NCBI GenBank assembly: GCA_035328405.1
Contig: DAOLIT010000010.1
Coordinates: 3,529 to 67,528 of the forward strand
DNA from: Pseudomonadota bacterium
Lineage (GTDB): Bacteria; Myxococcota_A; Polyangia; Palsa-1104; JAEUJZ01
Length of the DNA stretch: 64,000 nucleotides
Reading direction: 5' to 3'
Shown here piece after piece: positions 27,948 to 59,508 of the stretch. The position numbers and the translations under genes were made by a program. The notes below the pieces were generated by a model. It was given only the letters and a program-made list of their open reading frames with translations, did not search any database and was not told the origin of the DNA. Within the stretch, counting starts at the first letter, position 1, and the number at the start of each line of letters is the position of its first letter.

Positions 27948-28050
27948 ATTCTCTTTCTCCTTGGCTTTTGTTTGGCTTGAGGCGGCCCAAAGCCGTGTCA
28001 TCGGTTCACAAGCGGGTTTGCCAGGTCAGTCATTGGGCGCGATGACACCG

Positions 28051-28130
28051 GACACGGAACTCTGGACACGGAACTCTGGACACCGAACACCGAACACCGA
28101 ACACCGAACACCGAACACCGAACACCGAAC
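28051..28130. repeat. short tandem repeats in grpE upstream region: (gacacggaactctg)x2 then (caccgaa)x7
   Basis: Direct read. Lies ~100-180 bp upstream of the grpE start on the minus strand and upstream of the plus-strand CN-hydrolase gene. Confidence 0.9.
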
Positions 28131-28223
28131 ACCGAACAGAAGTTGAGCAGCAAAGTCCACAAGCGCAATATCCCGGCATCGACAAAGAACGACGGTTTCT
28201 CGGCAAGCAGTATACTGCGGGCC

Positions 28224-41400: not shown

Positions 41401-41482
41401 GCCCGAGTGGCGAAATTGGTAAACGCAGAGGACTTAAAATCCTTAGCCGCATGGCGTGTGGGTTCGATTCCCGCCTCGGGCA
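41401..41482 (+). tRNA. tRNA-Leu (anticodon TAA)
   Basis: Cloverleaf: acceptor GCCCGAG/CTCGGGC, D-arm, anticodon loop cTTAAaa, long variable arm, T-arm GTGGG-TTCGATT-CCCGC, discriminator A. Confidence 0.85.
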
Positions 41483-41527
41483 CAAAAACGCTGCGCATTC
41501 CCAAAGACTTCGGCCTACAGTCCCGCC

Positions 41528-44321: not shown

Positions 44322-44636
44322 CACCAGGCTTAGGGCAATCGGCGTGGGGCTTCGGGCAATTGGCGTGGGGGCTCGGGCAATTGACGTGGGGGCTCGGGCA
44401 ATTGACGTGGGGCTTAGGGCAATTTGCGTGGGGGCTCGGGCAATTGGCGTGGTTGCGCGGGCAATTGGCGTGGGGCTTCGGGCAATTGGCGTGGGGGCTC
44501 GGGCAATTGACGTGGGGGCTCGGGCAATTGACGTGGGGCTTAGGGCAATTTGCGTGGGGGCTCGGGCAATTGGCGTGGTTGCGCGGGCAATTGGCGTGGG
44601 GCTTCGGGCAATCGGCGTGGGGCTTAGGACGTTGTG
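44322..44636. repeat. 21-bp tandem repeat array (~15 units, gggcaattggcgtgggggctc-like) with 147-bp higher-order duplication
   Basis: Direct read. Units differ at a few positions (a/c at unit pos 9, ctc/ttc/tta, one variant 'ggttgcgc'). The 7-unit block is repeated twice nearly exactly. Lies between murC and the OLD-family gene; no spacers, so not CRISPR. Confidence 0.9.
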
Positions 44637-44643
44637 GTGGGGC

Positions 44644-46560
44644 TCATGGCGCGGTCAGCAGATCGAGCAGGGTTCGGATTTCCAAAGGAATGGCCCGATG
44701 GAGGTCCGGCAAGAGGTTTCGCTCTGCTTGCTCGACGATCTCGACCAGCGAACCCCGCAACGCAAAAGACCCCTTGGGCAACGTGTCGCGCAGCGCCTGC
44801 AGAAGAACGCGGGACCGGTCTTTTCCATGCTGAAAGACCGCCGGGTTTTCACGCACATCGGCGCGGGCCCGCTGGTTGGCGGTGTTTTCATCGAGCATCT
44901 TGCCGTCTTTGTCCGGGCGGCGATGCACCGCACGCCGACCATCGACCGCCTGATCTTCCAGGGCTCGGTCTTCGTCGGCCTTTTTCACCGCTGCGTCAAG
45001 CTGTGCCACAAGGTCCTCAGGCGCAAGGCGGATGTGCGGCGCAAGCCAAGCACTCAAACAGCGTGAGTCCAAAAACAGGCTCTCGATGCTGTGTCTAGAC
45101 CACGTAGCCTCCACCACCACGAGGTGGTTGGCCAGATTCGTGCTGGTGGGCGCTTTGGGTTCGCGGCCAAAGTCGCGATCTTTGACGAGGGCCGCTCTCA
45201 CCGGGACCCCGCTCTGCAAGGTGGGGAAGAGCGCAGGCGTGAGCAGTGCCTTCAACACGCCTTGGGCGCTCGCGTTGCCCACACCGTTGAGCGGAACGGG
45301 CGTGTAGTCCAAGAAGCGCTGCCAGCGATCCTGTTGATCTGCGTACAAGAGGCGAGCACAGGCTCGCAGAAACTTGTAGTCCGACGGCCCCTCGTAAAAA
45401 AGAACGCGACGAGACGCTAGAAAGTTCAAGGCCGTAAACGGCGTCAAATCACAGAAGGACCCAAGGGCTGCCACGATGTCAGAATCGTTGCGCAGCACAG
45501 CCACCGAAGGCGTGGCCTTTCGATCGACGTGAAGCAGCACAGCATCCCGGCGCTGTCCCAGGCGATTTGTCACCTCGACCGAGTGGGTGGCCAACACAAG
45601 CTGAACGCCAAACGTATGAAGCGCCAACTGGGTAAGCGCCTCGGCGGCCTCGGCCTGCAAACGCGGATGCAGATGCGCCTCTGGTTCATCGAGCAGAAAC
45701 AGGACGGGGCGGTTTTCGCTCTCTACTCGCTGCACCTGAAGGAGCTTCATCGCCGAAAACAGCGCAACAAGGTTGACCAGGCCCGAGCCCGCAGAAGACA
45801 GTTCCAGCTCTCCGTTGTCATCTTGAAAGTAGACGTGCAGATCGGCAGTGTTCTCGGCGTCGGCCTGCGCCGTTCTCCGCGTCAGGCGCGTCCCGAGCGG
45901 CGCAAGCAGCGTGCGGTTCAACTGCTCGAGGTCGGCGGCATCCAGTCGAGCAACCAAGTTCCGCACGATGTGGCTTTGATCGCCGCTGCCCAGCAACCGA
46001 GTCAACAGGGGACGCGACCGATGCTCCTCTGTCCGAATCACCCCATAGAACGCAGGGACAAACACAGACAGCGGATAGAGGCGCCCGAGGTCCATCTGCA
46101 GACGCGCTTTCACGTCCGATTTTCGAGCCATTCCCGATACCGATGCCAACGCCTGACGAGACCGTACCGCTACACTGCGCAAAAGCTGCCGGTTGCGTCC
46201 GTAGTGAAAGCTCACCCACAGTTCCTGGAGCGCATCTGTCTCATCGAAGGCCAGGGTGATGTCCAGGCTTGTGCCGTCCCCCACTTGCGCATGGTGAAAC
46301 AGTTGGGTCCAGTCGGACAAACCCACAAGCGCGCTCGGATCGGACACCACTTCCTTGCGAGAAGTCCAAATCCATCCGTCCGGGACTCGCTCTGGGAGGA
46401 ACGCGGCGGTCTGCGCCAGCGACTCACAAGCCAAACGGATCGCTTGCAGCACCGTGGATTTGCCCGAGCTGTTCTTGCCAATCAGCACGGTCACGTCGGA
46501 GAGATCCGCTTGAAACGCTGCAAAGCCTCGGTAGTTGGTGAGCTCGACCTTGCGTAACAT
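44644..46560 (-). CDS. OLD-family ATP-dependent endonuclease (ABC-type ATPase + TOPRIM), class-1 (solo)
   Basis: N-terminal 'LRKVELTNYRGFAAFQADLSDVTVLIGKNSSGKST' (Walker A), 'LFLLDEPEAHLHPRLQ' (Walker B/D-loop). C-terminal TOPRIM-like 'VLFYEGPSDYKFL' and 'VKDRDF' (DxD). Confidence 0.7.
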   Translation of the reverse strand: MLRKVELTNYRGFAAFQADLSDVTVLIGKNSSGKSTVLQAIRLACESLAQTAAFLPERVPDGWIWTSRKEVVSDPSALVGLSDWTQLFHHAQVGDGTSLDITLAFDETDALQELWVSFHYGRNRQLLRSVAVRSRQALASVSGMARKSDVKARLQMDLGRLYPLSVFVPAFYGVIRTEEHRSRPLLTRLLGSGDQSHIVRNLVARLDAADLEQLNRTLLAPLGTRLTRRTAQADAENTADLHVYFQDDNGELELSSAGSGLVNLVALFSAMKLLQVQRVESENRPVLFLLDEPEAHLHPRLQAEAAEALTQLALHTFGVQLVLATHSVEVTNRLGQRRDAVLLHVDRKATPSVAVLRNDSDIVAALGSFCDLTPFTALNFLASRRVLFYEGPSDYKFLRACARLLYADQQDRWQRFLDYTPVPLNGVGNASAQGVLKALLTPALFPTLQSGVPVRAALVKDRDFGREPKAPTSTNLANHLVVVEATWSRHSIESLFLDSRCLSAWLAPHIRLAPEDLVAQLDAAVKKADEDRALEDQAVDGRRAVHRRPDKDGKMLDENTANQRARADVRENPAVFQHGKDRSRVLLQALRDTLPKGSFALRGSLVEIVEQAERNLLPDLHRAIPLEIRTLLDLLTAP

Positions 46561-46620: not shown

Positions 46621-49056
46621 TTAGTAATCGAAACGGAGGCCCAGGTTGGGGAAGATCGGCAGGCCGACGACTCGGCCTTGTTGGTAGAGCTGGCGGCCTC
46701 CGTACAAGAGGCTTTCGGCGTTCTTGCGGTTGTACAGGTTCTGGATTTCCACATAGAAACCGAACCGAAAGCGCCGGAACAAAAACGTCTTGTCCACACG
46801 CACATCCAGCTGGTGAAAGTCCGGCAGGCGCACGGAATTGGGTTCCCCCGAAACGCCTTGGTAGTACTGCCCGGACACGTCGCGGAGGCCCCCAACAAGC
46901 TCGGTGGTGGGATTGCCGGTCACGTACCGGAACCGCGCCCCGCAAAGCAGCCCCCACGGCAATTGATAGGACAAGACGGCGGTCAAGATGTGCGTCTGGT
47001 CAAACCGAAAGAGCCGCCAAGGTTCCTCTGGGTGATCGCGCCGTTCGGAACGGGACAGGGTGTACGCCAAAAAACCCCACAGTCCCCGCCACAGAGGTTG
47101 ACGGGCCAGAAACTCGCCTCCGTACACACGCCCGAGCCCATCGTTGGAATACATCGTATGCGGATCGGACACGACGAGCTGCCGCAGGTCCTTGTAAAAC
47201 CCCTGTGCCTCTAGGTGCAGTCCCCCCGGCAAATCGGCATCCGCCCCCAATACATAGTGCGTGCCCGCTTGCCACGCGAGGTACGGATTCCCAAACAGAG
47301 GCGACAGCTCGGCCCCTTGCGGCGCTTGGTGATAGACCCCAATGCCTCCTTTCAAAAACAGCCTGTCCGGGACAAGCGTCGCGCGCAGCGTCAGCCTGGG
47401 CTCGACGAACAAAAGCGTCCGCGACACCGTGGTGAGGGCCGTCGCTTCACTGTCCTCCTCGCGACTGGGAATGCGAACATGGTCCGCAGACACCCGAAGC
47501 TGCGGCGACAATTCCAGCCGATTGTCGAACAGATGAAACCGCGCAATCAGATACGGAGACGTTTGCAGCAAGTGATAGAGGAGCAGCTCGCGCAGCACCG
47601 GCCCTGTGGAATCCGCGAAAAAACCGTCCCCAAAGAAACCATTTTCCGAACGGCCCGCGTCTTTCACCATGTCCGCTCCGCCGACCGGCAGGTTCTGGCT
47701 GTCTTGTGCCCCCTGCGCCAGCGGCATGAGCGTTTCGACTCGGGCGCGCACTCCCTCGAAGTCGAGTCCCAGCCCCACATCGAACCACTGCCGCCACTTC
47801 TTGTGAAATTCGCCGCGCAGGTTGTACCCAAGCTGAAGGACCTTGAGCGCCACCGGCTTGCCCCCCAACCCCTGATCCCCTGTCACCACCGAAAACGTGT
47901 CCCCCCCGATCGAAGGCATGAGCCACAGGACCGAATCCCCCGAAAAGCGATGGGTGTACCGCAAGCGCGCCCGGCCAAAATACGATTTGCTGTCGATGTG
48001 GACGCGGCTGTTGGGGTCGGGGTCGTCTACTTTCGCCGTGATGTTGCTGGTCGCTCCGAACACGAGCAGGTCCAGGTCGTCGCGCGGACCTGCGGCATAG
48101 TGCGCAGCCAGCTGGTAGTCCCAATAAAACGGAGAAAGCTGCGTGCTGCCCGAATTGAAAAGGGGCAAAAGCGCAGAAATCCAAGACACGCGCCCGCCCG
48201 CTGCGACGTGCAGTTTCTTTGTAACCGGGCCTTCGACCGTGACGCTCCCATCGATCAGGTCGAGCGTGATGGACCCGTGCCACCTATCGCTTTTGGGGCG
48301 GCGCGTGGCGACCTCGATCACCCCGCCCAGGCCCCTTCCGTAGTCGGCCCCGTACGCCCCCGGACGAAAGGACACGTCCGTCACAAACTCGGCGCTGATG
48401 GTCGAACGCACGCCGCCAAAGTGATAGACCCTCGGGATTTGCACCCCGTCCGCATAGACGCGGGTGTCCGATGGCGCAGAACCCCACACGACGATTTGCC
48501 CTCCTCCGAACGGCGCACGCGCGATGCCGGGCAAGTTCTGCATCGCTTTGATGGGATCGTTTTGTCCGCCCGGAATTTTCTTGAGCTCGGTCACAGACAA
48601 CGTGGTCGAGACGACCTCGCGGCGCAGCGGAGCGGCTTTGACGACCACCTCGAACGGATTGCCTTTGGGAGGCGCAAACAGCGTGATCTCAAGACGCCCC
48701 TTGGGCAGGTCCTGCTGGCCTTTTGTCGTCTGAATGCGCGCCGACCGCAGCGTCAAGTACACCGTCCCCGGCGCAAGACCGACAAGACGAAACCGGCCTT
48801 CCTCGTCCGTTTCCGTGACCACGGGCTTTTTGTCATCGGGCCAACGAGACACCGCGAGCTTCACAAAGGGCAGCGGGTCGCGCGTGCCTTGCTCTTTGAC
48901 GACGCCGAGGAATTCGCACAATTCCGAAAGCGGCGGAGGTTCGACTTCTTCTTCGCTTGGCGAGTCACTTGGCCGTTCTTCCGCCCGCACGACCTGCAAA
49001 AAACAAGCGACAAAACCAGGCACAAGCCACACAAGCCGAGCCAATCGTCCGCACAT
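46621..49056 (-). CDS. TonB-dependent outer membrane receptor (with N-terminal carboxypeptidase-regulatory-like domain)
   Basis: Signal peptide, plug-region 'DGVQIPRVYHFGGVRSTI', C-terminal beta-barrel ending '...LGLRFDY'. Confidence 0.85.
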   Translation of the reverse strand: MCGRLARLVWLVPGFVACFLQVVRAEERPSDSPSEEEVEPPPLSELCEFLGVVKEQGTRDPLPFVKLAVSRWPDDKKPVVTETDEEGRFRLVGLAPGTVYLTLRSARIQTTKGQQDLPKGRLEITLFAPPKGNPFEVVVKAAPLRREVVSTTLSVTELKKIPGGQNDPIKAMQNLPGIARAPFGGGQIVVWGSAPSDTRVYADGVQIPRVYHFGGVRSTISAEFVTDVSFRPGAYGADYGRGLGGVIEVATRRPKSDRWHGSITLDLIDGSVTVEGPVTKKLHVAAGGRVSWISALLPLFNSGSTQLSPFYWDYQLAAHYAAGPRDDLDLLVFGATSNITAKVDDPDPNSRVHIDSKSYFGRARLRYTHRFSGDSVLWLMPSIGGDTFSVVTGDQGLGGKPVALKVLQLGYNLRGEFHKKWRQWFDVGLGLDFEGVRARVETLMPLAQGAQDSQNLPVGGADMVKDAGRSENGFFGDGFFADSTGPVLRELLLYHLLQTSPYLIARFHLFDNRLELSPQLRVSADHVRIPSREEDSEATALTTVSRTLLFVEPRLTLRATLVPDRLFLKGGIGVYHQAPQGAELSPLFGNPYLAWQAGTHYVLGADADLPGGLHLEAQGFYKDLRQLVVSDPHTMYSNDGLGRVYGGEFLARQPLWRGLWGFLAYTLSRSERRDHPEEPWRLFRFDQTHILTAVLSYQLPWGLLCGARFRYVTGNPTTELVGGLRDVSGQYYQGVSGEPNSVRLPDFHQLDVRVDKTFLFRRFRFGFYVEIQNLYNRKNAESLLYGGRQLYQQGRVVGLPIFPNLGLRFDY

Positions 49057-49186: not shown

Positions 49187-49828
49187 TCAGCGCAACAGGC
49201 CGCAGTGCCGTCCAGTGCGGCGGGCTTCCTCGATCGCCTCCATGGGCGGCACCGGGCGAATCTCCCCCATCAAACCGTTTGGCAGAAGCTCGATGTCCAC
49301 AAACGAGGGATAGAAGTGACGGATCATGCGAACCATGTGCCGGTCTCCCTCGGAATAGGTCCGCACGAACGAAAAATTGCGGAACGGCCCGTCGTGCAGA
49401 TCCAGCAATTCCTGAAATGTGCCGTAATCGAGAAAACTCGCGATGTCCTTGGCGAGGCTGGGAAAGAAAATGAAGTTCCGAAACCGCGATTCATAGACCG
49501 CTTCTATTGGGGGAACAGCCTTGATCTCGCCCATGTATCCATTGGGCAAAATCTCGATGTCGGCGCAGGATTCTCCATACAGTTCGCTGACTCGCATCCA
49601 GTTTTTCCCATCGCGACAAAACCGTCGTTCAACCGCGAAATCACTTGATGGCCCATCGCTAAGAGAAAAAACTTCATCGAACGTGCCCAGGTCTTTCCAT
49701 TCCACGATCCGCTGAAGATCCCTGGGTCGCAACGTAAACGGCACAAGGTCTTCGGGCGGCGGGAGCCACCCAAACAAATCGTCCAACGGAGGGAGCGGTT
49801 CAAAGTCAGGCATGTGCAAAACCCCCAT
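49187..49828 (-). CDS. hypothetical protein with internal tandem domain duplication; candidate immunity protein for the adjacent toxin
   Basis: Two ~90-aa repeats (DGKNWMRVSELYGESCADIEILPNGYMGEIKAVPPIEAVYE / DRHMVRMIRHFYPSFVDIELLPNGLMGEIRPVPPMEAIEE). No signal peptide. Lies directly 3' of the toxin gene. Confidence 0.5.
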   Translation of the reverse strand: MGVLHMPDFEPLPPLDDLFGWLPPPEDLVPFTLRPRDLQRIVEWKDLGTFDEVFSLSDGPSSDFAVERRFCRDGKNWMRVSELYGESCADIEILPNGYMGEIKAVPPIEAVYESRFRNFIFFPSLAKDIASFLDYGTFQELLDLHDGPFRNFSFVRTYSEGDRHMVRMIRHFYPSFVDIELLPNGLMGEIRPVPPMEAIEEARRTGRHCGLLR

Positions 49829-49931: not shown

Positions 49932-52900
49932 TCAGGGCTCGCGGTCGGGGTCCTCCATCGTGGACTGCACCGTTGGAACCCCATCGTCATCCAGAGAGGA
50001 AACCGTCCCCCCGCGCCCCAGCGCAGTTCGGCCCGAAAACGTCAGCTCCTGGTTCATTTGGAAGAACGGATCGTTGTGTTCGTCGCGCAGTCCTTGCGAG
50101 GCCGTCATCCCCATGCCCGTCGAAGGATCGTTGGATTCAAAGCGGCCCCGCAGTTGAATGTGTTGGAAATTTTTGCGTTCCTTGTTCCACCGGAGAAGCT
50201 GCGGAAGTTTGGCTTCCAACTCTGCCGCTTTGGCATCGGGAAACGTCTGCCGCAGGTTCGTAAGTTGCGCATTTCGTTCCGCGAGCGCGGCTTGCTGCAA
50301 GTCGTAGCCCATCGGAACTTGCAGTTTCTGAATCATCTCCGGCGTGAGCGTCGCTTCGAGCACACGCAAATTCTCCGCGCCGTCGGGATTGACGGTCGCC
50401 AGGCCACTAGACTCCCGGTTCACGTAGGGGTTTTTGGTCGGGTCGGCGGTCACGTAATCCAGGCCCAGGTTCTTGATGCGCTGGTCGGCGTTCATCCCCT
50501 CGGTGTTCTGGAGCAGACCCACATCCCCACTGACCGTCCAATTCGGGGTTCCCTCTTTGTAGAACTTGTCCGCCGTATCGCCGCCGATGACCTTGGCGAT
50601 TTTTTGCCCCGCTTGCACGTCCTCGAACAGCGCAATGTTCATTTTGAGCAGCAGTTTGAGTTCCTGGTCGGTCAGCTTGCCCCGCGTTTGTCCAAGCGCA
50701 TCGACTTCCGAGTGCGCCCCGATCGTCCGATGTTCCGTCGCGGGTTTGCCAGCGTTCGTCTGCGCTTCCAACTCGCGCGCCACGCTGTCGGGCATCGTCG
50801 CCTGCTGGTTCTTTTTGATGGTGCCCTTGAGCACTTCGATCTCGTCGGGCGTAAAGCCTTTGGACCGCAGCCGTTCTTCGACCGTGCTGGCTTTGGGCAT
50901 CGTCTTTGGATCGACGCCCAGCTCGGTCGCGAAACCCTGCAACGTGCGCGCTTCATCGACACCGAGCACAGAACCATCCGCTTTCTTCTGGCCTTCCGCC
51001 TTTTTGTGTTCCGCCTCAGCCGCCAGCTCGCGCAACGCCTGTTCGTCGCCCTTTTTCCGCGCCGCGATTTCCTGTTCCCACTGGTTGACCATTTCGTGGT
51101 CTTCAGTGGTCTTCGCCTGAGCGCGCAGATCTTCGAGAGCTTGCTCGTCTGCCGACAGCTTCCGCTTCGGACGCCCCTTGTCATCCAGGGTGCTCTCTTC
51201 ACCCACCCCAGCCTTGGCGTTCTTTTTGACTTTCGCGTCCGCTTCGGTGTCCTTGGCCTTTTCGCCCGATTCCGGTCCCACCGGCTTGGCCTGGTCCGTT
51301 TTGCCCTTCTCTTGCGCAGAAGCGTCCTGGCTCTTTTCGTGCGGATCGGCGGCTTTCCCGTCTGCCACATCTTGGGGTTTTACCGGGTGGTCGTCCTGTT
51401 TGGCTTCCTCGTGCCGCGTTTTTTCCTGGTCCGCCTGTTGCTTGCTTTCTTTCACCGCTTCTTCGGGCGCTTTTTCGTTTTTCCCCTTCTGTTTTTCGGC
51501 GGCCACCTCCTTGTGCACCTCGCTCACGTCGTCCTTGTCGCCCTTCTTGCTGTCGCCGTGCGCACCTTCCTCTGACCCCGCATCGCCCCCCTGGTTTTGC
51601 TCGGCCTTCGGTTTGTCTGGCCCCTGATCTGGGGTTTGAGCCTGCGCTTTTTTCGCTTCCTTCAGCTCCGCACGGGTCTCCGCGATGCTGTCGAGCGACC
51701 CCGAAAGTCCTGCACCACCCACCGACGTCACCCATTTCTTCGCGATGTCTTCGGGACGGCCAGAAAACATGCTGGGATCGAGCACATTGGCGGCGGTCTG
51801 GCCCGCTGCGCTGCTGCTTCCGCCCTTGATGGCCGAGAACATGTACGGATTCATCCCGTTTGGACCGTTTCCAAACGCTTTTCCCACGCCTGCGCTCGTT
51901 CCACCGTTCACAAAACTCGTCAGCATGCTCGAACCGACTTGGCTACCCATTCCTTTCACGAAGTCGCCAAAGTCCCCCTGGTAGTTTTGCTCGTTCATCA
52001 GTCCGCCCACCAAGCTGTTGATTCCGTTTTGCCCCGCGCTCGACAACCCCCCTTTCAACATCGTTTGCAGCATCGTCGCCGTCTTCGGGTCCGCAATCCC
52101 CACAAGCTTGTTGAGCTGTCCTTCCAGGCCGGGCAGTTTGAACGCACCTGCCGTCAGCGCGCTCGCCAGCGTCGTCACCGCATCCACCCCGATGTCTTCG
52201 AGCGCATATCCGCCCTCCAGCATCACCCCTTTGACCGCCATGCTGCTCGCTCCGCCTAGGAGCGCGGACAGCGCCGCCACCACCGCGGGAGACGCCGAGC
52301 CCGCCGTCGCAATCGAAACCGCTGCCCCCACCACCACCGCTGCGCCCGTCGCCACTGCGTTGGTCGCCGAATCCTTCGCCGCCTGGTAGTTCTGCACGTC
52401 CTGACCTTGGTATTCCGTCAGCACGCCCAACCGATCTTTGGCCGCCCCAGACCACGACCCGTCTTTTTGGGCTTGCTGGGCCAAGTTGTTGATTCGCTGG
52501 TGTTGGTAATCGAGCACTTGCCCAGAATCCGAAAACAGATCCGTCACACCGCGCGAGAACCAGTTGCTGCCGCTGCCGCGATCAAATTCGTAGGCCTCGT
52601 TCGCCCGCGACACCATTTCCTCTGGCGTTTCGGGTTTGCCTTTCATCATTTGGCCGATTTCAAAGCCGTCGCGCCCGCTCACTTCGCCTTTGAGCAACGC
52701 ATCCAAATCTTGTCCGTATTTCTCTTTGTACGTTTTCCGCAGCTCATCGATTTCTGTTTTGGACTTGCCTTCCAGCGTCTTGCGAATCAGTTCCTCATTC
52801 GTGCCAATCCCGTTCGTTGCATATTTCAGCGCAAACTCATCGCTGATTTTTCCGTCTTTTTTCAGTTGATTCGCTTTTTCCAAATCGAGCCCGGACAGCT

Positions 52901-54131
52901 CACTTTTCAGCATCTGGTCGAAATTCTGTCCGCCCGCTTTGTTGCCATATTGCTGGTTGTATTTGGCAATCAGTTGTTCGCGTTCTTTTGGCGATTTGCC
53001 CTCCATCGACTTGAAGATCGCCTCTTCGTCCGTGCCCCAAAAGTCTTCGGACGCTACTTTGACCCGAGCCGCTTCTGCCCCTGCCTTGTCGCCCTTGAGC
53101 AAATTCGACGCCACATCTTTTTCGGCCCCAGAAAACTCGCGCCCAAGCGCCTTGGTCAACGGTTCGCCCGTCTTTTTCTGGTACGCCGCCGCCAGCGCCT
53201 TGCGTTCTTTTTCGTCTTTGCACGATTCGATGGCGTCATACACCCCGTTTTCATCCGTCCCCAAACCGAGGTTGAGAAAACCGCCATTCATCGCTTCATC
53301 CAGCTTCACTGCTGCCGCTTTTGCTTTGTCCCCTTCAAGCAACGCTTTCGACAGTGCCAAATCGTTCCCGGACATTTCGCTTTTGAGCATCTTGTCCAGG
53401 CTCTGGCCCGTCTTCTTTTCATACGCCGCCACGATCTGTTTGCGCTGCGCTGGGTCTGTCACATTTTCCAGAACCGATTGAATTTTCTTCTCATCGGTTC
53501 CCATTCCAAACATTCCGCCATGGGCCGCATTGTCGAGCGCCGCAACCGCACTCTTGACCGGATCTCCCGACAGAGCCGCCTGCGCTTCTTCCAGGTCTTT
53601 GCCCCCCAGCTCCCCTTTGATGTCGTTGTCCAGGCTGCGGCCAAAGTGGTCCTGATACGCCGCTTTGATCGCTTTGACCTCCGCAGGAGACTTCCCTCGC
53701 AGCGCATTGTGAATGGCGTCTTCGTCGGTGCCCCAACCATCCATCGCCTTGAAAAGCTGGTTGGCCGAATCCCGAACCGCTTTCGGATCGATCGGTTTCT
53801 CCTCAACTGCCGGCGCCGCCTTTTTCGCGTCGAGCTTCGGATCGAGCTTCGGATCGAGCTTCGGATCGAGCTTCGGGTCAACTTGTGGACCACGCTTGTC
53901 CATCGGCTTGTCTGGCAACGCAGCGGGCAACTTCCCTGGCAACACCGGGCCAATCGGAGAAACGGGGTCGCCAGGTCCTCCAGGCCCCTTGGACGGCGGC
54001 GGCATTTTGTTGCCACCTCCGAACAAACTGGTCACTTTGGACCAAATCCCCTGCTCTCCGCCCTTCTGAGCGTCGGGCTTTTGCGTGGTCGGTTTGTTCT
54101 TGTCGCCCTGAAAAAAATCGAACAACGACAT
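49932..54131 (-). CDS. large annexin-repeat polymorphic-toxin-like protein
   Basis: ATG start (MSLFDFFQG; the tracked ORF begins at an upstream TTG, 54143). 5-6 annexin repeats with the endonexin motif (K-G-x-G-T-[38]-D/E; e.g. KAMDGWGTDEDAIHNALRGKSPAEVKAIKAAYQDHFGRSLDNDIKGELGG). Then a Gly/Ala-rich hydrophobic block, a K/E/D-rich linker and a ~400-aa C-terminal region. No signal peptide. Confidence 0.75.
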   Translation of the reverse strand: MSLFDFFQGDKNKPTTQKPDAQKGGEQGIWSKVTSLFGGGNKMPPPSKGPGGPGDPVSPIGPVLPGKLPAALPDKPMDKRGPQVDPKLDPKLDPKLDPKLDAKKAAPAVEEKPIDPKAVRDSANQLFKAMDGWGTDEDAIHNALRGKSPAEVKAIKAAYQDHFGRSLDNDIKGELGGKDLEEAQAALSGDPVKSAVAALDNAAHGGMFGMGTDEKKIQSVLENVTDPAQRKQIVAAYEKKTGQSLDKMLKSEMSGNDLALSKALLEGDKAKAAAVKLDEAMNGGFLNLGLGTDENGVYDAIESCKDEKERKALAAAYQKKTGEPLTKALGREFSGAEKDVASNLLKGDKAGAEAARVKVASEDFWGTDEEAIFKSMEGKSPKEREQLIAKYNQQYGNKAGGQNFDQMLKSELSGLDLEKANQLKKDGKISDEFALKYATNGIGTNEELIRKTLEGKSKTEIDELRKTYKEKYGQDLDALLKGEVSGRDGFEIGQMMKGKPETPEEMVSRANEAYEFDRGSGSNWFSRGVTDLFSDSGQVLDYQHQRINNLAQQAQKDGSWSGAAKDRLGVLTEYQGQDVQNYQAAKDSATNAVATGAAVVVGAAVSIATAGSASPAVVAALSALLGGASSMAVKGVMLEGGYALEDIGVDAVTTLASALTAGAFKLPGLEGQLNKLVGIADPKTATMLQTMLKGGLSSAGQNGINSLVGGLMNEQNYQGDFGDFVKGMGSQVGSSMLTSFVNGGTSAGVGKAFGNGPNGMNPYMFSAIKGGSSSAAGQTAANVLDPSMFSGRPEDIAKKWVTSVGGAGLSGSLDSIAETRAELKEAKKAQAQTPDQGPDKPKAEQNQGGDAGSEEGAHGDSKKGDKDDVSEVHKEVAAEKQKGKNEKAPEEAVKESKQQADQEKTRHEEAKQDDHPVKPQDVADGKAADPHEKSQDASAQEKGKTDQAKPVGPESGEKAKDTEADAKVKKNAKAGVGEESTLDDKGRPKRKLSADEQALEDLRAQAKTTEDHEMVNQWEQEIAARKKGDEQALRELAAEAEHKKAEGQKKADGSVLGVDEARTLQGFATELGVDPKTMPKASTVEERLRSKGFTPDEIEVLKGTIKKNQQATMPDSVARELEAQTNAGKPATEHRTIGAHSEVDALGQTRGKLTDQELKLLLKMNIALFEDVQAGQKIAKVIGGDTADKFYKEGTPNWTVSGDVGLLQNTEGMNADQRIKNLGLDYVTADPTKNPYVNRESSGLATVNPDGAENLRVLEATLTPEMIQKLQVPMGYDLQQAALAERNAQLTNLRQTFPDAKAAELEAKLPQLLRWNKERKNFQHIQLRGRFESNDPSTGMGMTASQGLRDEHNDPFFQMNQELTFSGRTALGRGGTVSSLDDDGVPTVQSTMEDPDREP

Positions 54132-54147
54132 CTTGCCCCCCAAAACG

Positions 54148-54205
54148 TTGTGCGTCGCGCCGTTGAGATTATCGTCTGGTTTCGACGCAAGTGTCTGTTT
54201 CGAGG
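54148..54205. promoter_or_regulatory. ~57-nt palindrome-containing element, copy A (immediately 5' of the toxin gene)
   Basis: ttgtgcgtcgcgccgttgagattatcgtctggtttcgacgcaagtgtctgtttc, with internal 7-bp inverted repeat TGCGTCG...CGACGCA. Near-identical to copy B at 58774-58830. Confidence 0.6.
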
Positions 54206-54410
54206 GAAGGTCGTGTTTGGGGAACTGGGTCTACGGAAGACCGTTTACCTACTGCGCATCGAGCCAGGACAGATCGCCCTCGAACAGGCACAGGTTCCTG
54301 TTGCCCGAGGTCTGGGACTCCCTTGGCCGAAGTCAGGGACTCCCTTGCAGGTTCCACTCCCGCCGTCTCCGCCCGAACTACCCCGGATAGGCATTCTCTC
54401 CATCCTGCCT

Positions 54411-54752
54411 TCAGTACCGGTGTTTCGTCGTCTCAATCTCCTCGACCTCGCGGGCACCCGCGACCGGGAGAATCTCGGTCAGCACCCTGTGCCGGGCGTT
54501 CGCCACGCGCTCGTCGTGCTCCATGTCCTCGGATTCGACCTTCAGGACCGCGTCGAGTATACCCTTGTAGTGATCGTAGAATCGTAGTCTTGCCTTGTCG
54601 CCGATGTCCGCACTGAGCCAGTCGTCCTCGTAGCGCCGCTCGGTGCTGTAATGGACCCAGGGGCGCTTCGTCGCCGGTTCGAGCAATTTCTTCAATCGAC
54701 CGAAATAGTCGTTGTCGGTCTTGAACCGCCAGGTGATGTAGGTCGTCTTCAT
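54411..54752 (-). CDS. small acidic hypothetical protein (candidate immunity protein for orphan cassette 2)
   Basis: 113 aa, begins 25 nt after the stop of the orphan cassette ORF, same strand. No signal peptide. Confidence 0.45.
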   Translation of the reverse strand: MKTTYITWRFKTDNDYFGRLKKLLEPATKRPWVHYSTERRYEDDWLSADIGDKARLRFYDHYKGILDAVLKVESEDMEHDERVANARHRVLTEILPVAGAREVEEIETTKHRY

Positions 54753-54776
54753 TCGTGCTCTCGCAATCTAGGAGTA

Positions 54777-56405
54777 CTAGTCCCTGTCGGGTCCAGTGTA
54801 CAGGGTCGGGGGCGTCGTGAACGGGTCGTTTCCAATGTTCAGCTTGAAGTCGAACAGCCCGTCCTTGTTTTTCGGATCTGCTAGCGTGGCCGGGTCATAG
54901 GCGCGCTGGTCCCATTCCTTGCCGTACCGGTAGAGATCGCCGCCCAGGTCGGTATTGGAGAACCCCGGCTTGCCGTCGGGTGAGCCGGTCTTGAAGATAC
55001 CGTAGTCGGCGTTGATCGGGTTGTCGATTTGCATCGCTCCGACCTTGGCCTGGTCGCTGAACACGGCGAGGTCGGTGTCGGATTCGGGCGTCCACGCGCC
55101 GCGCTGGAACCAATCCTCGTCGTTGCGTCCGCTACCATAGTGTTGCAGGAGCTTCATCGGGTTGTTCTTCCAGCCGGTGGTGCCTGAGCCGACCTGGACG
55201 ACCTGCATGTCGGTGATGCCATTACGGTCGGCGATGGCGGCGAGGCCCCCCTGGAAGTCGCGCATCTGCTCGGTGGCTCCGGCGAGATCGTTGACGTCGC
55301 CGCGTGCCCCCTTATAGGTCAGCGGCACCCGCTCGCCGTCCGCGTTTCCCTGGACCGCGAGCTTCAAGCGTTCGGCGGAGACATCGTTCGGGTGCTCGGC
55401 CTCGCCGCTTCGGACGCGCTCGTAGTTCGACTCGTTGAGCTTGCGCAAATGGTTGTGGGCGGCCTGGATGATCTCGTCGGGCGTCGAGCCCGATGTCAAG
55501 CCAGCGGCCTTTCCCGCCTCGCTGTTTACGAAGGCATCCATGCCATTGAACTCAAGCTGGTGCTTGTCGTGATCCTCCAGACTTATCTTCCCAGACGCGA
55601 AGAGCTCGGCTTCGCGCTCGCGGCTGAGGCGACCTTCCTTCGGCAGTACGTCGAGCTTGTCCATCGCCCACTTCACGGCCTTTTCAACCTCATTGGCGGA
55701 AGGCGGCAACTTCTTGGGCCCCTCCGCGTTGGAGACGTCCGCCGCAGTCAAGACGGCAGTCGTCTTGTCGTCATGAGTCTCGTCACCCAGGGTCGGCTTT
55801 GAGGTGTCCTCGGTCTTGGGTTTTACCGGGTGGTCGTCCTGTTTGGCTTCCTCGTGCCGCGTTTTTTCCTGGTCCGCCTGTTGCTTGCTTTCTTTCACCG
55901 CTTCTTCGGGCGCTTTTTCGTTTTTCCCCTTCTGTTTTTCGGCGGCCACCTCCTTGTGCACCTCGCTCACGTCGTCCTTGTCGCCCTTCTTGCTGTCGCC
56001 GTGCGCACCTTCCTCTGACCCCGCATCGCCCCCCTGGTTTTGCTCGGCCTTCGGTTTGTCTGGCCCCTGATCTGGGGTTTGAGCCTGCGCTTTTTTCGCT
56101 TCCTTCAGCTCCGCACGGGTCTCCGCGATGCTGTCGAGCGACCCCGAAAGTCCTGCACCACCCACCGACGTCACCCATTTCTTCGCGATGTCTTCGGGAC
56201 GGCCAGAAAACATGCTGGGATCGAGCACATTGGCGGCGGTCTGGCCCGCTGCGCTGCTGCTTCCGCCCTTGATGGCCGAGAACATGTACGGATTCATCCC
56301 GTTTGGACCGTTTCCAAACGCTTTTCCCACGCCTGCGCTCGTTCCACCGTTCACAAAACTCGTCAGCATGCTCGAACCGCTCAGCGCGTCCCTGTCTTGA
56401 GCCAA
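54777..56405 (-). pseudogene. orphan (5'-truncated) toxin cassette: homology block plus an alternative ~350-aa C-terminal domain
   Basis: Nucleotides ~55817-56380 are essentially identical to 51377-51945 inside the toxin gene (encoding SSMLTSF...EEAKQDDHPVKP). The reading frame then diverges into an unrelated C-terminal domain. No ATG/RBS at the 5' boundary (the tracked start is a TTG); the 5' end overlaps the upstream pentapeptide gene. Confidence 0.65.
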
Positions 56406-57124
56406 GCAGGAATCGTCGTCACATCAGGTGCAGGTCCGCCGTCGAAGTCGCCAGAAAAATCAGGGCTGATGATCTCACAGGCCCCTTCCATCACCGGTTC
56501 CCCCTGAACGCCATGAAACGCGCAGCGCTCGAACACTGCATCCTTGAGCTTCAGACCGTTGAAGTTGGCGCTGCGGAAATCGCACTGAACAAAGCGGGTC
56601 CGGTACGCGCTGCCTAGGGGCGGTCCCCCGGTTCGGGTGAGCTTCGCACCGCGAAAGTTGCAGTACTCGAACAAACTGTCATCGAAGGTCATGTCGTTGA
56701 GTTTTGCGCCGGTGAAATTGCAGCGGAGCGTGCGCGCTTCTGGAAAGGAGCTCCGATCCATGATCGCAAAAGAAAAATCCGAGTCGCTGATCATTCCACC
56801 GTCGTAGTCAATCATCGACAGCGTGCTGCCCACGAAGCGACAGCCTTCGATGCGAGCGCGCTCCAAGGCGCACATGCTCAAACTGGCGCGATCAAAGACG
56901 CAGCGAATGAGCTCGATTTCTTCAAAGCCGCACTGCTGAAACTGCGAATCACTGAGATCGCAGCTCACGAAGCGAGCGCCTAGAAAAATGCAACCGGCGT
57001 CGCGTGACTTACGGAACTCATGGCCTTCGAGATCGATGCGGCCCGCGCCGGTCTTTCCCCGCTCCAGCCACTGCCGATGTTCCCGTTGAACCTCTTTGGA
57101 GAGTTCGACTTGCCAGCTCAACAT
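56381..57124 (-). CDS. pentapeptide-repeat protein (candidate immunity protein for the deaminase-fold orphan fragment)
   Basis: Consecutive A(D/N)LxF-type pentapeptides (CDLSDSQFQQCGFEEIELIRCVFDRASLSMCALERARIEGCRFVGSTLS...). Starts 16 nt after the ADA-like fragment. Confidence 0.65.
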   Translation of the reverse strand: MLSWQVELSKEVQREHRQWLERGKTGAGRIDLEGHEFRKSRDAGCIFLGARFVSCDLSDSQFQQCGFEEIELIRCVFDRASLSMCALERARIEGCRFVGSTLSMIDYDGGMISDSDFSFAIMDRSSFPEARTLRCNFTGAKLNDMTFDDSLFEYCNFRGAKLTRTGGPPLGSAYRTRFVQCDFRSANFNGLKLKDAVFERCAFHGVQGEPVMEGACEIISPDFSGDFDGGPAPDVTTIPAWLKTGTR

Positions 57125-57139
57125 TGGGCCACCCTAAGC

Positions 57140-57550
57140 TCACTCCGCGTCCTGGTCAAGGCGTGCATTGTCCCGTGCGTCTCCGTCGGAAACCTGATCG
57201 CCGTAGGCGCTTGCGGACTCTTTTAGGAGGCTCATGCCCTGCGCGATTCGCGCCCGCTGCTCGTCTGACATCTGTTGGAAGTACTTCAGTTCTCCATCCA
57301 TCTCGATGGGGAAGCGGCCCTTCATATATGCCTTGAATAGCTGCTCGGCGCGCTTGTATTCCTTGCTGAGCGTGGTGTGCATCACCGAGTGCCCGTCGGT
57401 ACTGAGGATGGTTGGCACCCCCTCAGCAATCAGGTTGATGAGGGAGTGATTCTGGAAGGTGTTGTCGCGGCCCCCTCGTACCGGCTGGAGCGAGCCGGTT
57501 TGCTCGTTGCTGGTCAGGTTGACTTCCGCGTAGATCCCAAGCTCCTTCAT
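57140..57550 (-). pseudogene. orphan fragment encoding the C-terminal third of an adenosine/AMP-deaminase-fold (metal-dependent hydrolase) domain
   Basis: 'AEVNLTSNEQTGSL' ~ ADA 'CPxSNxxT' and 'VPTILSTDGHSVMHTTLSKEY' ~ ADA 'SINTDDP...EY'. Upstream (57590-57650) is a remnant of the toxin homology block in another frame (AAEKQNGKNEKAPDD) ending in a stop. Confidence 0.55.
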
Positions 57551-57671
57551 GCGCTTGATCTGCTCGGACGTTGCGTGCGTGGCATGACCGAAGCGATCTG
57601 GCTGAGCGCAGTGTCGTCGGGCGCTTTTTCGTTTTTCCCGTTCTGTTTTTCGGCTGCGACCTCACGGTCTG

Positions 57672-57975
57672 GGTGCCAGACTTGGTGGTCTTGGATCGGG
57701 CCTTGGCGGTCTTGGACCTAGACTGGGTGGTCTTGGACCTCGACCTGGTGGTCTTGGACCTAGCCTTGGCGGTCTTGGACCTAGACTGGGTGGTCTTGGA
57801 CCTAGACTGGGTGGTCTTGGACCGGGCCTTGGTGGTGTTGGACTGAGACCTGGTGGTCTTGGACCTAGACTGGGTGGTCTTGGACCGGGCCTTGGTGGTG
57901 TTGGACTGACACCTGGTGGTCTTGGACCTAGACCTGGTGGTCTTGGACGTGGCCTTGGCGGTGTTGGACCTAGAC
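57672..57975. repeat. 21-bp tandem repeat array x14 (ggtcttggacctagactgggt-like)
   Basis: Direct read of 14 consecutive 21-nt units with point variants. Open in several frames on both strands. Confidence 0.9.
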
Positions 57976-58140
57976 TTGGTGAAGGATCGCTCCCGATTTG
58001 TGAATCTGTGTTCACTTTTTGTGATGGAAAAACCACGCAATCCTGAAAAAAAATTGCTTTTTTTCAGCGTTTCCCTTGCGGCGCGAGATTTTTGAACTAC
58101 ACATGTGGCACTCGCACTCTGCGAGAAAGGAGACCGCCTC

Positions 58141-58635
58141 ATGGCCAAAGACCCAAAAAACCCTGTTCCCGGTGACCTCGCGATCGATTGCACGCCCATT
58201 GCTGACCTGATTGTGGACCTGCCCCCAGGTGCGATGACCGGCATGCGCAAAGAACGCGCAGGCCTCGACGCGCTGCTGACGGAGATTGCAGCCAATCAAA
58301 AACTCTTCGGGGTCCGAGCGGGCATTGTTGACGAGGAGGTGAAGGCGCTCGACAAGCTGACCGAGCAACTTCAGCACACCCGCAAATACAAAGAACCGCT
58401 GCGCAAACTGCTGGAGCTTGTCACCGAGACCGAAGCTGCCCTCGACAATGAGCGGCACCAGCGCATCAGCAGCATCGCCACAAGCGTTGAACAACGCGCC
58501 AAGATTCCCGGCAACGAGGACCTCATGAGTCTGTACCGAGCGACGCGCGAATACCGCTCTGCCGTCGGGAAAAAAGCGGCCCACACGCGCACCAAACAAC
58601 AAAAGAACGACCACGACCCCAAGCCCGCCGTCTAA
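58141..58635 (+). CDS. hypothetical coiled-coil protein
   Basis: RBS AAAGGAGA, start MAKDPKNPV. Ordinary composition, unlike overlapping Arg-rich ORFs. No recognised motif. Confidence 0.45.
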   Translation: MAKDPKNPVPGDLAIDCTPIADLIVDLPPGAMTGMRKERAGLDALLTEIAANQKLFGVRAGIVDEEVKALDKLTEQLQHTRKYKEPLRKLLELVTETEAALDNERHQRISSIATSVEQRAKIPGNEDLMSLYRATREYRSAVGKKAAHTRTKQQKNDHDPKPAV

Positions 58636-58773
58636 CAAACGAACGATGTAGCCCCTCGCCGACCCCCTAGGCCCTTCCCCGGCCCTTCCTGCTGTATCCC
58701 CCCGGCTGTACGCTCCCTTTTCCAAACGGTGTCTTCCGCACAGAGTCGATGTCTTTCCCACAAAAACAAACTT

Positions 58774-58830
58774 TGTGCGTCGCGCCGTTGAGATTATGGT
58801 CTGGTTTCGACGCAAGTGTCCGTTTCAAGG
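58774..58830. promoter_or_regulatory. ~57-nt palindrome-containing element, copy B (immediately 5' of the 58843 gene)
   Basis: ttgtgcgtcgcgccgttgagattatggtctggtttcgacgcaagtgtccgtttc; 2-3 mismatches to copy A; followed by RBS CAAGGAGA and ATG. Confidence 0.6.
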
Positions 58831-58842
58831 AGACCGCAGGCC

Positions 58843-59508
58843 ATGGGCAGTCCAAACATCGCGTATTTGCTCGGGGATACCCAAGCTGGGATTTCCACCT
58901 ACTTCGAGGCGGGAACGCTCCTGGCGCTAACCCAAGGCCCCGACCCCAAGCTGACGCAGTATCTCGCCACCGAGTTGGCTCAACTCCAAAGCACCTATCC
59001 AGCGGTCAAACGCGACTTGGCGCGTGTCGCGGCGGTGCTGCGCGTGTTTGGCCACGAACCTCCAAAAGAGCCGAAAATGCCGACCGACTTTCCGGTGTGG
59101 ACCCAAGCTGTCAGCAAGCAAGTCCACGCCGCGCTCGAAGAAGATCAGCCCGCATTTGCGCACTACTTGCTCGGATATGTACTCGGGGACGCTACTGCGA
59201 CGCTGCGCGTGCTTGTGTACGTTTCGGCGCTGCTCGGCTTTGTCCCGCAGGACAAACGGCTGCGCGACATCGAACAAAACGTGCTGGAAGCCCTGGAACG
59301 CGGCAGTGAGAAGCTCTCGCACCTGGCCCTCCATCCGGCGTTTTCCGGCGGAATGAAGCAGGTCCTGTCCCAGATGGTTCCGTGTGTGAATGGCCCCGCG
59401 CTTTGGGCGAGACAATCCGACTCGCCAGCAACAAAAACCGTCGCCAACACCCTTTCTGATTTTTTGCGGTTGCGAAAGCAGCTCGACGACGAACGCGAAA
59501 AGGCCTAG
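58843..59508 (+). CDS. hypothetical protein
   Basis: RBS AAGGAGA 8 nt upstream of ATG (MGSPNIAYLLGD). 221 aa, helical, no recognised motif. Confidence 0.5.
   Translation: MGSPNIAYLLGDTQAGISTYFEAGTLLALTQGPDPKLTQYLATELAQLQSTYPAVKRDLARVAAVLRVFGHEPPKEPKMPTDFPVWTQAVSKQVHAALEEDQPAFAHYLLGYVLGDATATLRVLVYVSALLGFVPQDKRLRDIEQNVLEALERGSEKLSHLALHPAFSGGMKQVLSQMVPCVNGPALWARQSDSPATKTVANTLSDFLRLRKQLDDEREKA

Follow-up and report, generated by a model that had tools for sequence, protein, structure and literature searches.

A direct repeat around an orphan toxin block as the probable duplicated core of a divergent promoter region

Why should two nearly identical copies of a short intergenic sequence stand, in the same orientation, at the two ends of a block of orphan toxin and immunity genes? 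The question is raised by a polymorphic toxin locus in the 64-kb window (the whole stretch of DNA that was analyzed), where a full-length toxin gene on the minus strand (49932..54131; 1399 aa from an ATG at 54131) and a plus-strand gene for a 221-aa protein, here called gene221 (58843..59508), point away from each other across the block, each with one copy of the sequence close to its start codon. Gene221 is the first of a co-oriented run, gene221-scpA-scpB-rluB, whose last member is a pseudouridine synthase gene. We consider it fairly likely that the sequence, a 63-nt element, is the core of a promoter region that is divergent and probably bidirectional, and that rearrangement of the toxin locus duplicated it. 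The repeat pair is best explained as an ordinary by-product of such rearrangement, a new instance of known phenomena rather than a new kind of element.

The repeat pair and a single spacer in a distant relative

The repeat itself is a direct observation. A repeat search placed the toxin-proximal copy A (E_A) at 54143..54205 and the gene221-proximal copy B (E_B) at 58768..58830; the two are directly oriented on the plus strand, identical at 59 of 63 positions (94%), and 4625 nt apart from start to start. A pattern for the 48-nt core matched the window exactly twice, at these two sites, and found no match in 100 dinucleotide shuffles. The first-pass annotation had described the pair as 57 nt long with two or three mismatches; the pair is real and its shared orientation was given correctly, but the element is longer and carries four mismatches, and the start given for copy B (58774) is off by one (58773). 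Copy A does adjoin the minus-strand start codon of the toxin gene, as had been proposed, with a measured gap of 11 nt rather than ~15 nt. Copy B ends 12 nt before the gene221 ATG at 58843, in agreement with its earlier placement just before a ribosome-binding site and start codon, and the 4.6 kb between the copies does contain the orphan toxin and immunity genes that the repeats had been said to bracket.

Among metagenome contigs from independent samples, copy A was identical in 10 that also carry imm1 (the first immunity-position gene of the block) and copy B was identical in 10 that also carry gene221. Across these ~20 contigs the copy-specific variants and the overall arrangement are fixed.

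Homology ends sharply at both limits of the 63-nt repeat. The 40-nt flanks aligned no better than shuffled sequence (731/2000 and 480/2000 shuffles scoring as well), and a blastn-short search with the spacers adjoining the repeats (54206-54410 and 58636-58767) returned no homologue elsewhere in the window. By eye there seemed to be a decayed toxin start beside copy B and a decayed gene221 start beside copy A; we dropped this impression, as alignment against shuffles was not significant and blastn-short was empty.

The most informative comparison comes from a distant relative. Among 5.8 billion proteins, the 221-aa protein (P0001) has homologues in only one further cluster (P0002; 46% identity, E=2e-50). 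On a 1.5-kb contig (L011), the opposite-strand gene directly upstream of the gene221 orthologue encodes a product, MSLFGW...VTSLFGGGNK, that is orthologous to the N-terminus of the window toxin (41% identity, E=2e-13). The two genes on L011 are directly divergent, with one spacer of 84 nt between their start codons. When the toxin side of copy A (54132-54205) was joined to the gene221 side of copy B (58831-58842), the resulting 86-nt reconstructed spacer aligned with the 84-nt spacer of the relative, an alignment that 8 of 2000 shuffles equalled in score; the blocks common to both are GTGCGT, GATTATCG and AAGTGTCCG.

Comparison of these sequences suggests that toxin and gene221, divergent across one spacer, are likely to represent the ancestral state. 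The single divergent spacer of L011 aligns with the repeat, and we therefore infer that the 63-nt element is the core of the ancestral divergent intergenic region. That region would have separated the annexin-repeat toxin gene on the minus strand from gene221-scpA-scpB on the plus strand and would now exist as two copies, copy A having kept the toxin start side and copy B the gene221-scpAB side. The 4.6 kb in between would then be what turnover of the toxin locus left behind, namely two toxin C-terminal modules that have lost their N-termini, the immunity genes of these modules, a tandem array, and a single small gene. The earlier suggestion that the toxin gene and the plus-strand gene share regulatory DNA thus appears to have been right.

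Promoter-like content and the inverted repeat

A consensus scan identified a σ70-like site on the toxin strand of each copy: CAGACA-18-GATAAT in copy A (54168..54197, minus strand), with 36 nt between its -10 hexamer and the toxin ATG, and CGGACA-18-CATAAT in copy B (58793..58822, minus strand), which is now directed into the orphan block. These were the only two matches between 53900 and 59100, one per copy and both on the toxin strand, compared with an expectation of 0.7 per 5.2 kb; they score 9/12 against the consensus, and their spacers fall within the 16-18 nt criterion. Positions 1-600 of L011 likewise contained a single match, CGGACA-18-GATAAT, at the homologous position and with matching geometry (0.1 expected). 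Conservation of this promoter-like site is observed directly: the motif C[A/G]GACA-18-[G/C]ATAAT is common to both copies and to L011, and the distance from the end of the -10 hexamer to the toxin ATG is 34-36 nt in both species. Related toxin genes in other genomic contexts likewise have the -10 block CGATAATC upstream, as CCGATAATCT in L015/L016 and CCGATAATTT in L017, loci whose neighborhoods are quite different from that in the window. A further candidate for upstream comparison, L018 (P0003), was set aside: its toxin is N-terminally truncated and its upstream region is uninformative.

The center of the -10 region is pseudo-symmetric. In copy A it reads GATTATC (54167..54173) and in copy B GATTATG (58792-58798). 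On each strand GATTATC has an A at -11 and a T at -7, which is the reciprocal pattern of symmetric bidirectional promoters, and because of this a plus-strand promoter toward gene221 is plausible from the sequence, if weak by consensus. Published bidirectional promoters are described as carrying reciprocal -11A/-7T positions in one -10 element, with divergent starts 18 bp apart (Warman et al. 2021, via PMC10268837; PMC12825309). GATTATC resembles these promoters in its reciprocal bases and in lying within an 84-86-nt spacer between divergent genes. It differs from the accounts given there in that its plus-strand -35 is poor and not conserved, its two-way activity is a prediction from the sequence, and an extra 7-bp inverted repeat on the same axis falls outside the architecture that they describe.

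We propose that the element carries a σ70-type promoter on the toxin strand, with a -35 hexamer C(A/G)GACA, an 18-nt spacer and a -10 hexamer (G/C)ATAAT, which would give the toxin transcript a leader of ~30 nt. The pseudo-symmetric GATTATC could let the same ~60 bp fire toward gene221 as well, as a bidirectional promoter. The repeat ends 5 nt outside the candidate plus-strand -35 (TTGTGC) and 8 nt outside the predicted minus-strand -35; if breakpoints were tolerated solely outside a compact two-way promoter core, sharp repeat ends beyond both -35 hexamers would be the expected outcome. After duplication, copy A would drive the full-length toxin gene and copy B would serve gene221. The toxin-strand promoter of copy B, which looks intact, would now transcribe leftward, antisense to the 164-aa gene of the block and sense to the orphan modules and immunity genes.

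If this is correct, a promoter copy behind the orphan block suggests a simple way for orphan immunity genes to stay expressed. The arrangement is unusual in that the orphan modules lie upstream of an active toxin gene, behind their own copy of the toxin promoter. Should the plus-strand promoter exist, copy A would yield an RNA antisense to the first immunity gene, a possibility already raised in the first-pass annotation. The motif C(A/G)GACA-18-(G/C)ATAAT with its symmetric GATTATC is also a testable promoter for poorly studied annexin-repeat toxins of uncultivated, Haliangium-like myxobacteria of activated sludge.

Several observations weigh against this proposal. The upstream regions of L015 and L017 fail the formal promoter scan, and neither the motif nor the -10 block occurs in L019-L021, which are more distant toxin loci. 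The candidate TTGTGC-16-TATCGT on the plus strand (-35 at 54148-54153) scores 7/12, below the scan threshold; the alternative -10 hexamer GATTAT has a poor -35; and the plus-strand -35 is not conserved in L011. Promoter activity is read from consensus and from conservation across one true orthologous spacer and two paralogous toxin upstream regions, and the count of two copies applies to the 64-kb window rather than to a whole genome. Finally, orphan modules upstream of the main gene are unexplained by the standard displacement model.

The inverted repeat on the promoter axis invites a second reading, and the two are compatible rather than mutually exclusive. Its left arm, TGCGTCG, lies at 54151..54157 (58776-58782 in copy B) and its right arm, CGACGCA, at 54183..54189 (58808-58814 in copy B). 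The first-pass annotation had correctly noted this 7-bp inverted repeat in both copies, with a loop of ~28 nt; the loop measures 25 nt. A shared operator would be a site, TGCGTCG-N25-CGACGCA, at which a dimeric or tetrameric regulator co-represses the toxin gene together with gene221, the duplication having added the orphan block to its targets. Consistent with this, both arms are intact in both copies, with all four differences between the copies lying elsewhere; the arms are 32 bp apart from center to center, placing them on one helix face on either side of the -10 core; and the dyad axis (54170) coincides with the center of GATTATC. Just 3-6% of random or shuffled 63-mers contain an inverted repeat of 7 bp or longer, so that the inverted repeat alone is weakly unusual.

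Against an operator, neither the L011 spacer, which is the orthologous one, nor the sequences upstream of the L015 and L017 toxin genes contain the inverted repeat. Simple helix-turn-helix dimers do not usually have operators whose arms are separated by as much as 25 bp. Family and PDB searches of the neighboring genes found no DNA-binding domain and no candidate regulator adjacent to the element: the 164-aa protein has no significant family or PDB match, and gene221 has no Pfam, NCBIfam or PDB match. We considered gene221 as the regulator and rejected it on these grounds; its single-sequence AlphaFold model was uninformative (predicted local distance difference test score, 42). Neither conservation of the inverted repeat in orthologous promoters, with one true orthologue compared, nor a cognate regulator was found. 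We regard an operator as possible, though doubtful.

Origin of the duplication and other readings

The element is not the only sequence repeated across this locus. A 567-nt segment of the toxin gene (M; 51370..51936, minus strand) is 99.8% identical, with one indel, to positions 55814-56379 in the first truncated toxin module of the block (orphan 1; 54777-56405, minus strand). The two repeat pairs are interleaved: on the minus strand the order is E_B..M_B..E_A..M_A, with spacings of 4625 nt (E) and 4443 nt (M). Read in that direction, E_B is followed by 2.4 kb, M_B, C-terminal domain 1 with its immunity gene, E_A, the 2.2-kb toxin N-terminus, M_A, and C-terminal domain 0 with its immunity gene. 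Short-read assemblies of the source species break at M, where contigs L023-L031 end.

This order suggests, as the most likely origin of the duplication, that a toxin unit carried its promoter with it when it was duplicated or integrated. One path would be a tandem duplication of a promoter-toxin-immunity unit followed by replacement of the N-terminal part of the upstream copy; another would be a Campbell-type integration, in which either a toxin unit in circular form entered at M or the orphan block entered at E. The paths are indistinguishable because the block holds no N-terminal coding trace (a tblastn search found no remnant of the toxin N-terminus inside it) and no intact ancestor of the second module, orphan 2, is present in databases: a search with its 136-aa remnant returned no homologue other than itself. 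The difference in identity between E (94%) and M (99.8%) means either that M was exchanged or homogenized more recently or that E is older.

A repeat pair of this kind might also be a working recombination substrate, its direct copies serving as att-like sites or as RecA substrates through which the orphan block is excised, re-inserted or amplified. The pair is directly oriented, 94% identical along its 63 nt and sharply bounded, all of which would suit such a role; the interleaved 567-nt repeat would allow similar events, and activation of orphan modules by recombination has been documented for Rhs (PMC3967940). Two direct repeats, tens of nucleotides long and bracketing a few kilobases of accessory genes, also recall the attL/attR sites of integrated elements. 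Unlike such sites, these are associated with no integrase, with no tRNA or other typical target and with no presence/absence polymorphism that we could see, and the repeat is a host promoter region with a single-copy form in L011.

In and near the block we found no integrase, transposase or other recombinase. The 10 contigs that run through copy B and the 10 through copy A show the same flanks and no single-copy junction, and the copy-specific substitutions are fixed, with no sign of ongoing exchange. The window and the ~20 contigs thus offer neither a recombinase nor presence/absence polymorphism that would mark a mobile element. Sixty-three nucleotides with four mismatches are, in addition, a poor substrate for RecA. 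The tRNA-Leu gene of the window (41401-41483) has no integrase near it, its neighbors being housekeeping genes. The earlier idea that the repeats delimit a block that can be excised or duplicated survives as a footprint of past rearrangement; as a statement about current excision it finds no recombinase and no deletion variant in the ~20 contigs. Active recombination at these repeats seems to us unlikely.

A broader version would combine the interleaved E and M pairs into a recombination switch that shuffles, and possibly transfers, toxin and immunity modules without a dedicated recombinase; we give this slightly less credence still. If it were true, exchange between the two M copies would release a 4.4-kb circle on which a whole toxin gene with its promoter (E_A, the N-terminus, M and C-terminal domain 1) is accompanied by its immunity gene; exchange between the two E copies would set the orphan block free and return the locus to its simple ancestral form. 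With the promoter duplicated, every product of such recombination would be competent for expression.

The first-pass annotation had also raised the possibility of a structured RNA leader, in which a hairpin formed by the palindrome would control translation or stability from the 5' leaders of the gene221 and toxin mRNAs. A 7-bp stem can form, and copy B lies in the likely gene221 leader, with its end overlapping the AAGGAG ribosome-binding site. However, minimum free energies were no better than those of shuffles, whichever strand was folded and whether or not flanks were included (z from +0.19 to -1.63), and there was no Rfam family match even at E<=1. The orientation of the element toward one gene is the reverse of that toward the other, a transcript from the predicted toxin promoter would start downstream of one arm, and the stem is not conserved in L011. 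These results leave the RNA-leader reading unsupported and, in our judgment, very improbable.

Least probable of all is a dispersed genome-wide repeat, of the repetitive extragenic palindromic (REP) or bacterial interspersed mosaic element (BIME) kind, occurring here twice by chance: the element is short, intergenic and palindrome-bearing, but there are two copies in 64 kb and no more in ~270 kb of fetched loci, related toxin loci included, and its position is orthologous to the L011 spacer. Scans of genome and metagenome collections, evidently without the source species, with the pattern GTGCGT-N8-20-GATTAT-N16-AAGTGTCYG, which does match the fetched loci, gave chance matches alone (L012-L014 on inspection), and viral contigs gave none. 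In the sequence that could be searched, there is no REP-like dispersal of the kind that the first-pass annotation had named as evidence against a role at this locus, and there is partial conservation at the homologous locus.

The orphan block and the toxin locus

Besides orphan toxin and immunity genes, the block between the repeat copies (54206..58767) contains a tandem array and a single small gene. In minus-strand order toward the toxin gene, the second truncated module (orphan 2; 57140-57550, minus strand) leaves a C-terminal remnant of 136 aa that resembles the last third of an adenosine-deaminase fold (PF00962; weak, E=0.012). Orphan 2 shares a 50-nt tract, 92% identical, with the linker of the main toxin; over the longer interval 57140-57663 it is decayed, this tract lying in another frame and running into a stop codon. 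A 247-aa pentapeptide-repeat gene (56381-57124, minus strand) occupies the immunity-gene position after orphan 2. Orphan 1, a truncated toxin C-terminal module, follows, and then imm1, a 113-aa gene (54411-54752, minus strand) whose immunity role is assigned by position only.

These features are those of an orphan toxin-immunity array: truncated C-terminal modules with homology to the main gene, each followed by an immunity gene (roles by position). Such arrays are known as cdiA-CT/cdiI and rhs-CT/rhsI orphans (PMC3150448, PMC3967940). As in the cdiA and rhs arrays, a full-length toxin gene stands beside N-terminally truncated modules, and the homology tracts between modules and main gene (here 567 nt at 99.8% plus 50 nt) are able to support recombination. 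The present locus differs in three respects. Its orphans are situated upstream, 5' of the main gene promoter on the toxin strand, instead of following the main gene; a copy of the promoter region stands on either side of them, giving the block its own copy of the toxin promoter; and the toxin, from a Haliangium-like myxobacterium, has annexin repeats and is neither an Rhs nor a CdiA protein.

The tandem array, with a 21-nt unit and a further periodicity at 63 nt, lies at 57678-57981 between orphan 2 and the 164-aa gene (58141-58635, plus strand). The unit is repeated 14.5 times in the window and 7.3 times in another strain (L001 8983-9139), and the difference of 7 x 21 = 147 nt accounts exactly for the spacing between the E copies, which is 4625 nt in the window and 4478 nt in L001. 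Of the three frames on the minus strand, two stay open, with PRPPSLG and KTTQSRS heptads; stop codons interrupt the one that continues the frame of the toxin linker. At the other end of the block, positions 54301-54348 hold two tandem 22-nt units with the near-palindrome GGGAGTCCC, which is unique in the window. These units lie just downstream of the 113-aa gene and ~105-150 nt upstream of the predicted toxin promoter of copy A, and could be a terminator or an upstream regulatory site.

The full-length toxin is composed of five annexin repeats (Pfam E=5e-45), a hydrophobic segment rich in Gly and Ala, a charged linker, and a variable C-terminal domain. Downstream of it, a 213-aa gene (49187..49828, minus strand) without a family match is the presumed cognate immunity gene, by position only. 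Homologues of the toxin come mostly from uncultivated bacteria, the closest named ones being from Haliangium sp. UPWRP_2 (82% identity) and Kofleriaceae. With the sample names of the metagenome contigs, these relatives point to a Haliangium-like myxobacterium of activated sludge as the source. The metagenome-assembled genome that carries P0001 is labeled 'Pseudomonadota bacterium' at NCBI, yet these nearest named relatives of its toxin belong to the Myxococcota.

Annexin domains have been reported in polymorphic toxins of Haliangium and assigned to delivery of the PVC type, that is, by contractile injection (Zhang et al. 2012, PMC3482391). The window toxin resembles those proteins in placing annexin repeats before a variable C-terminal toxin domain, as well as in its Haliangium and Kofleriaceae relatives. 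That report covers protein architecture; promoters and repeat-bracketed orphan blocks are outside its description. We saw no PVC metallopeptidase domain and no injection-system genes in the window.

Several features of annexin-repeat toxins vary among loci. Near the toxin N-terminus, a 12-nt repeat encoding (DPKL)n has 3.9 copies in the window (53824-53879) and 7.4 in L001 (5093-5181), and the L011 orthologue has (DAKV)n at this place. A short motif (MSLFDFF, MSLFGW, MFDFL or MFGFD) opens several otherwise divergent annexin-repeat toxins, among them that of the window (53832-54131, minus strand), P0015, P0018, P0025 and that of L011, and may be a targeting or secretion signal. In L019 (217-672) and L020 (2472-2936), a conserved gene of ~151-154 aa with no Pfam family directly precedes the annexin toxin on the same strand. 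We tried the 164-aa gene of the window as a relative of this small gene and discarded the match, as the alignment was not credible.

Immediately to the left of the toxin locus, a TonB-dependent-receptor-like gene (46621-49056) has beside it an AAA_15/AAA_21 (AbiEii/OLD-like) ATPase gene (44644-46560), which may be a defense gene. Between this ATPase gene and a murC-like gene lies another tandem array with 21/63-nt periodicity (44327-44625; 14.2 copies), whose unit, GGCTTCGGGCAATTGGCGTGG, is unrelated to that of the array at 57678-57981. Other tandem arrays in the window are at 8103-8305 (27 nt x 7.5), 8468-8632 (42 nt x 3.9, 97% identity) and 28045-28138 (7 nt x 13.4).

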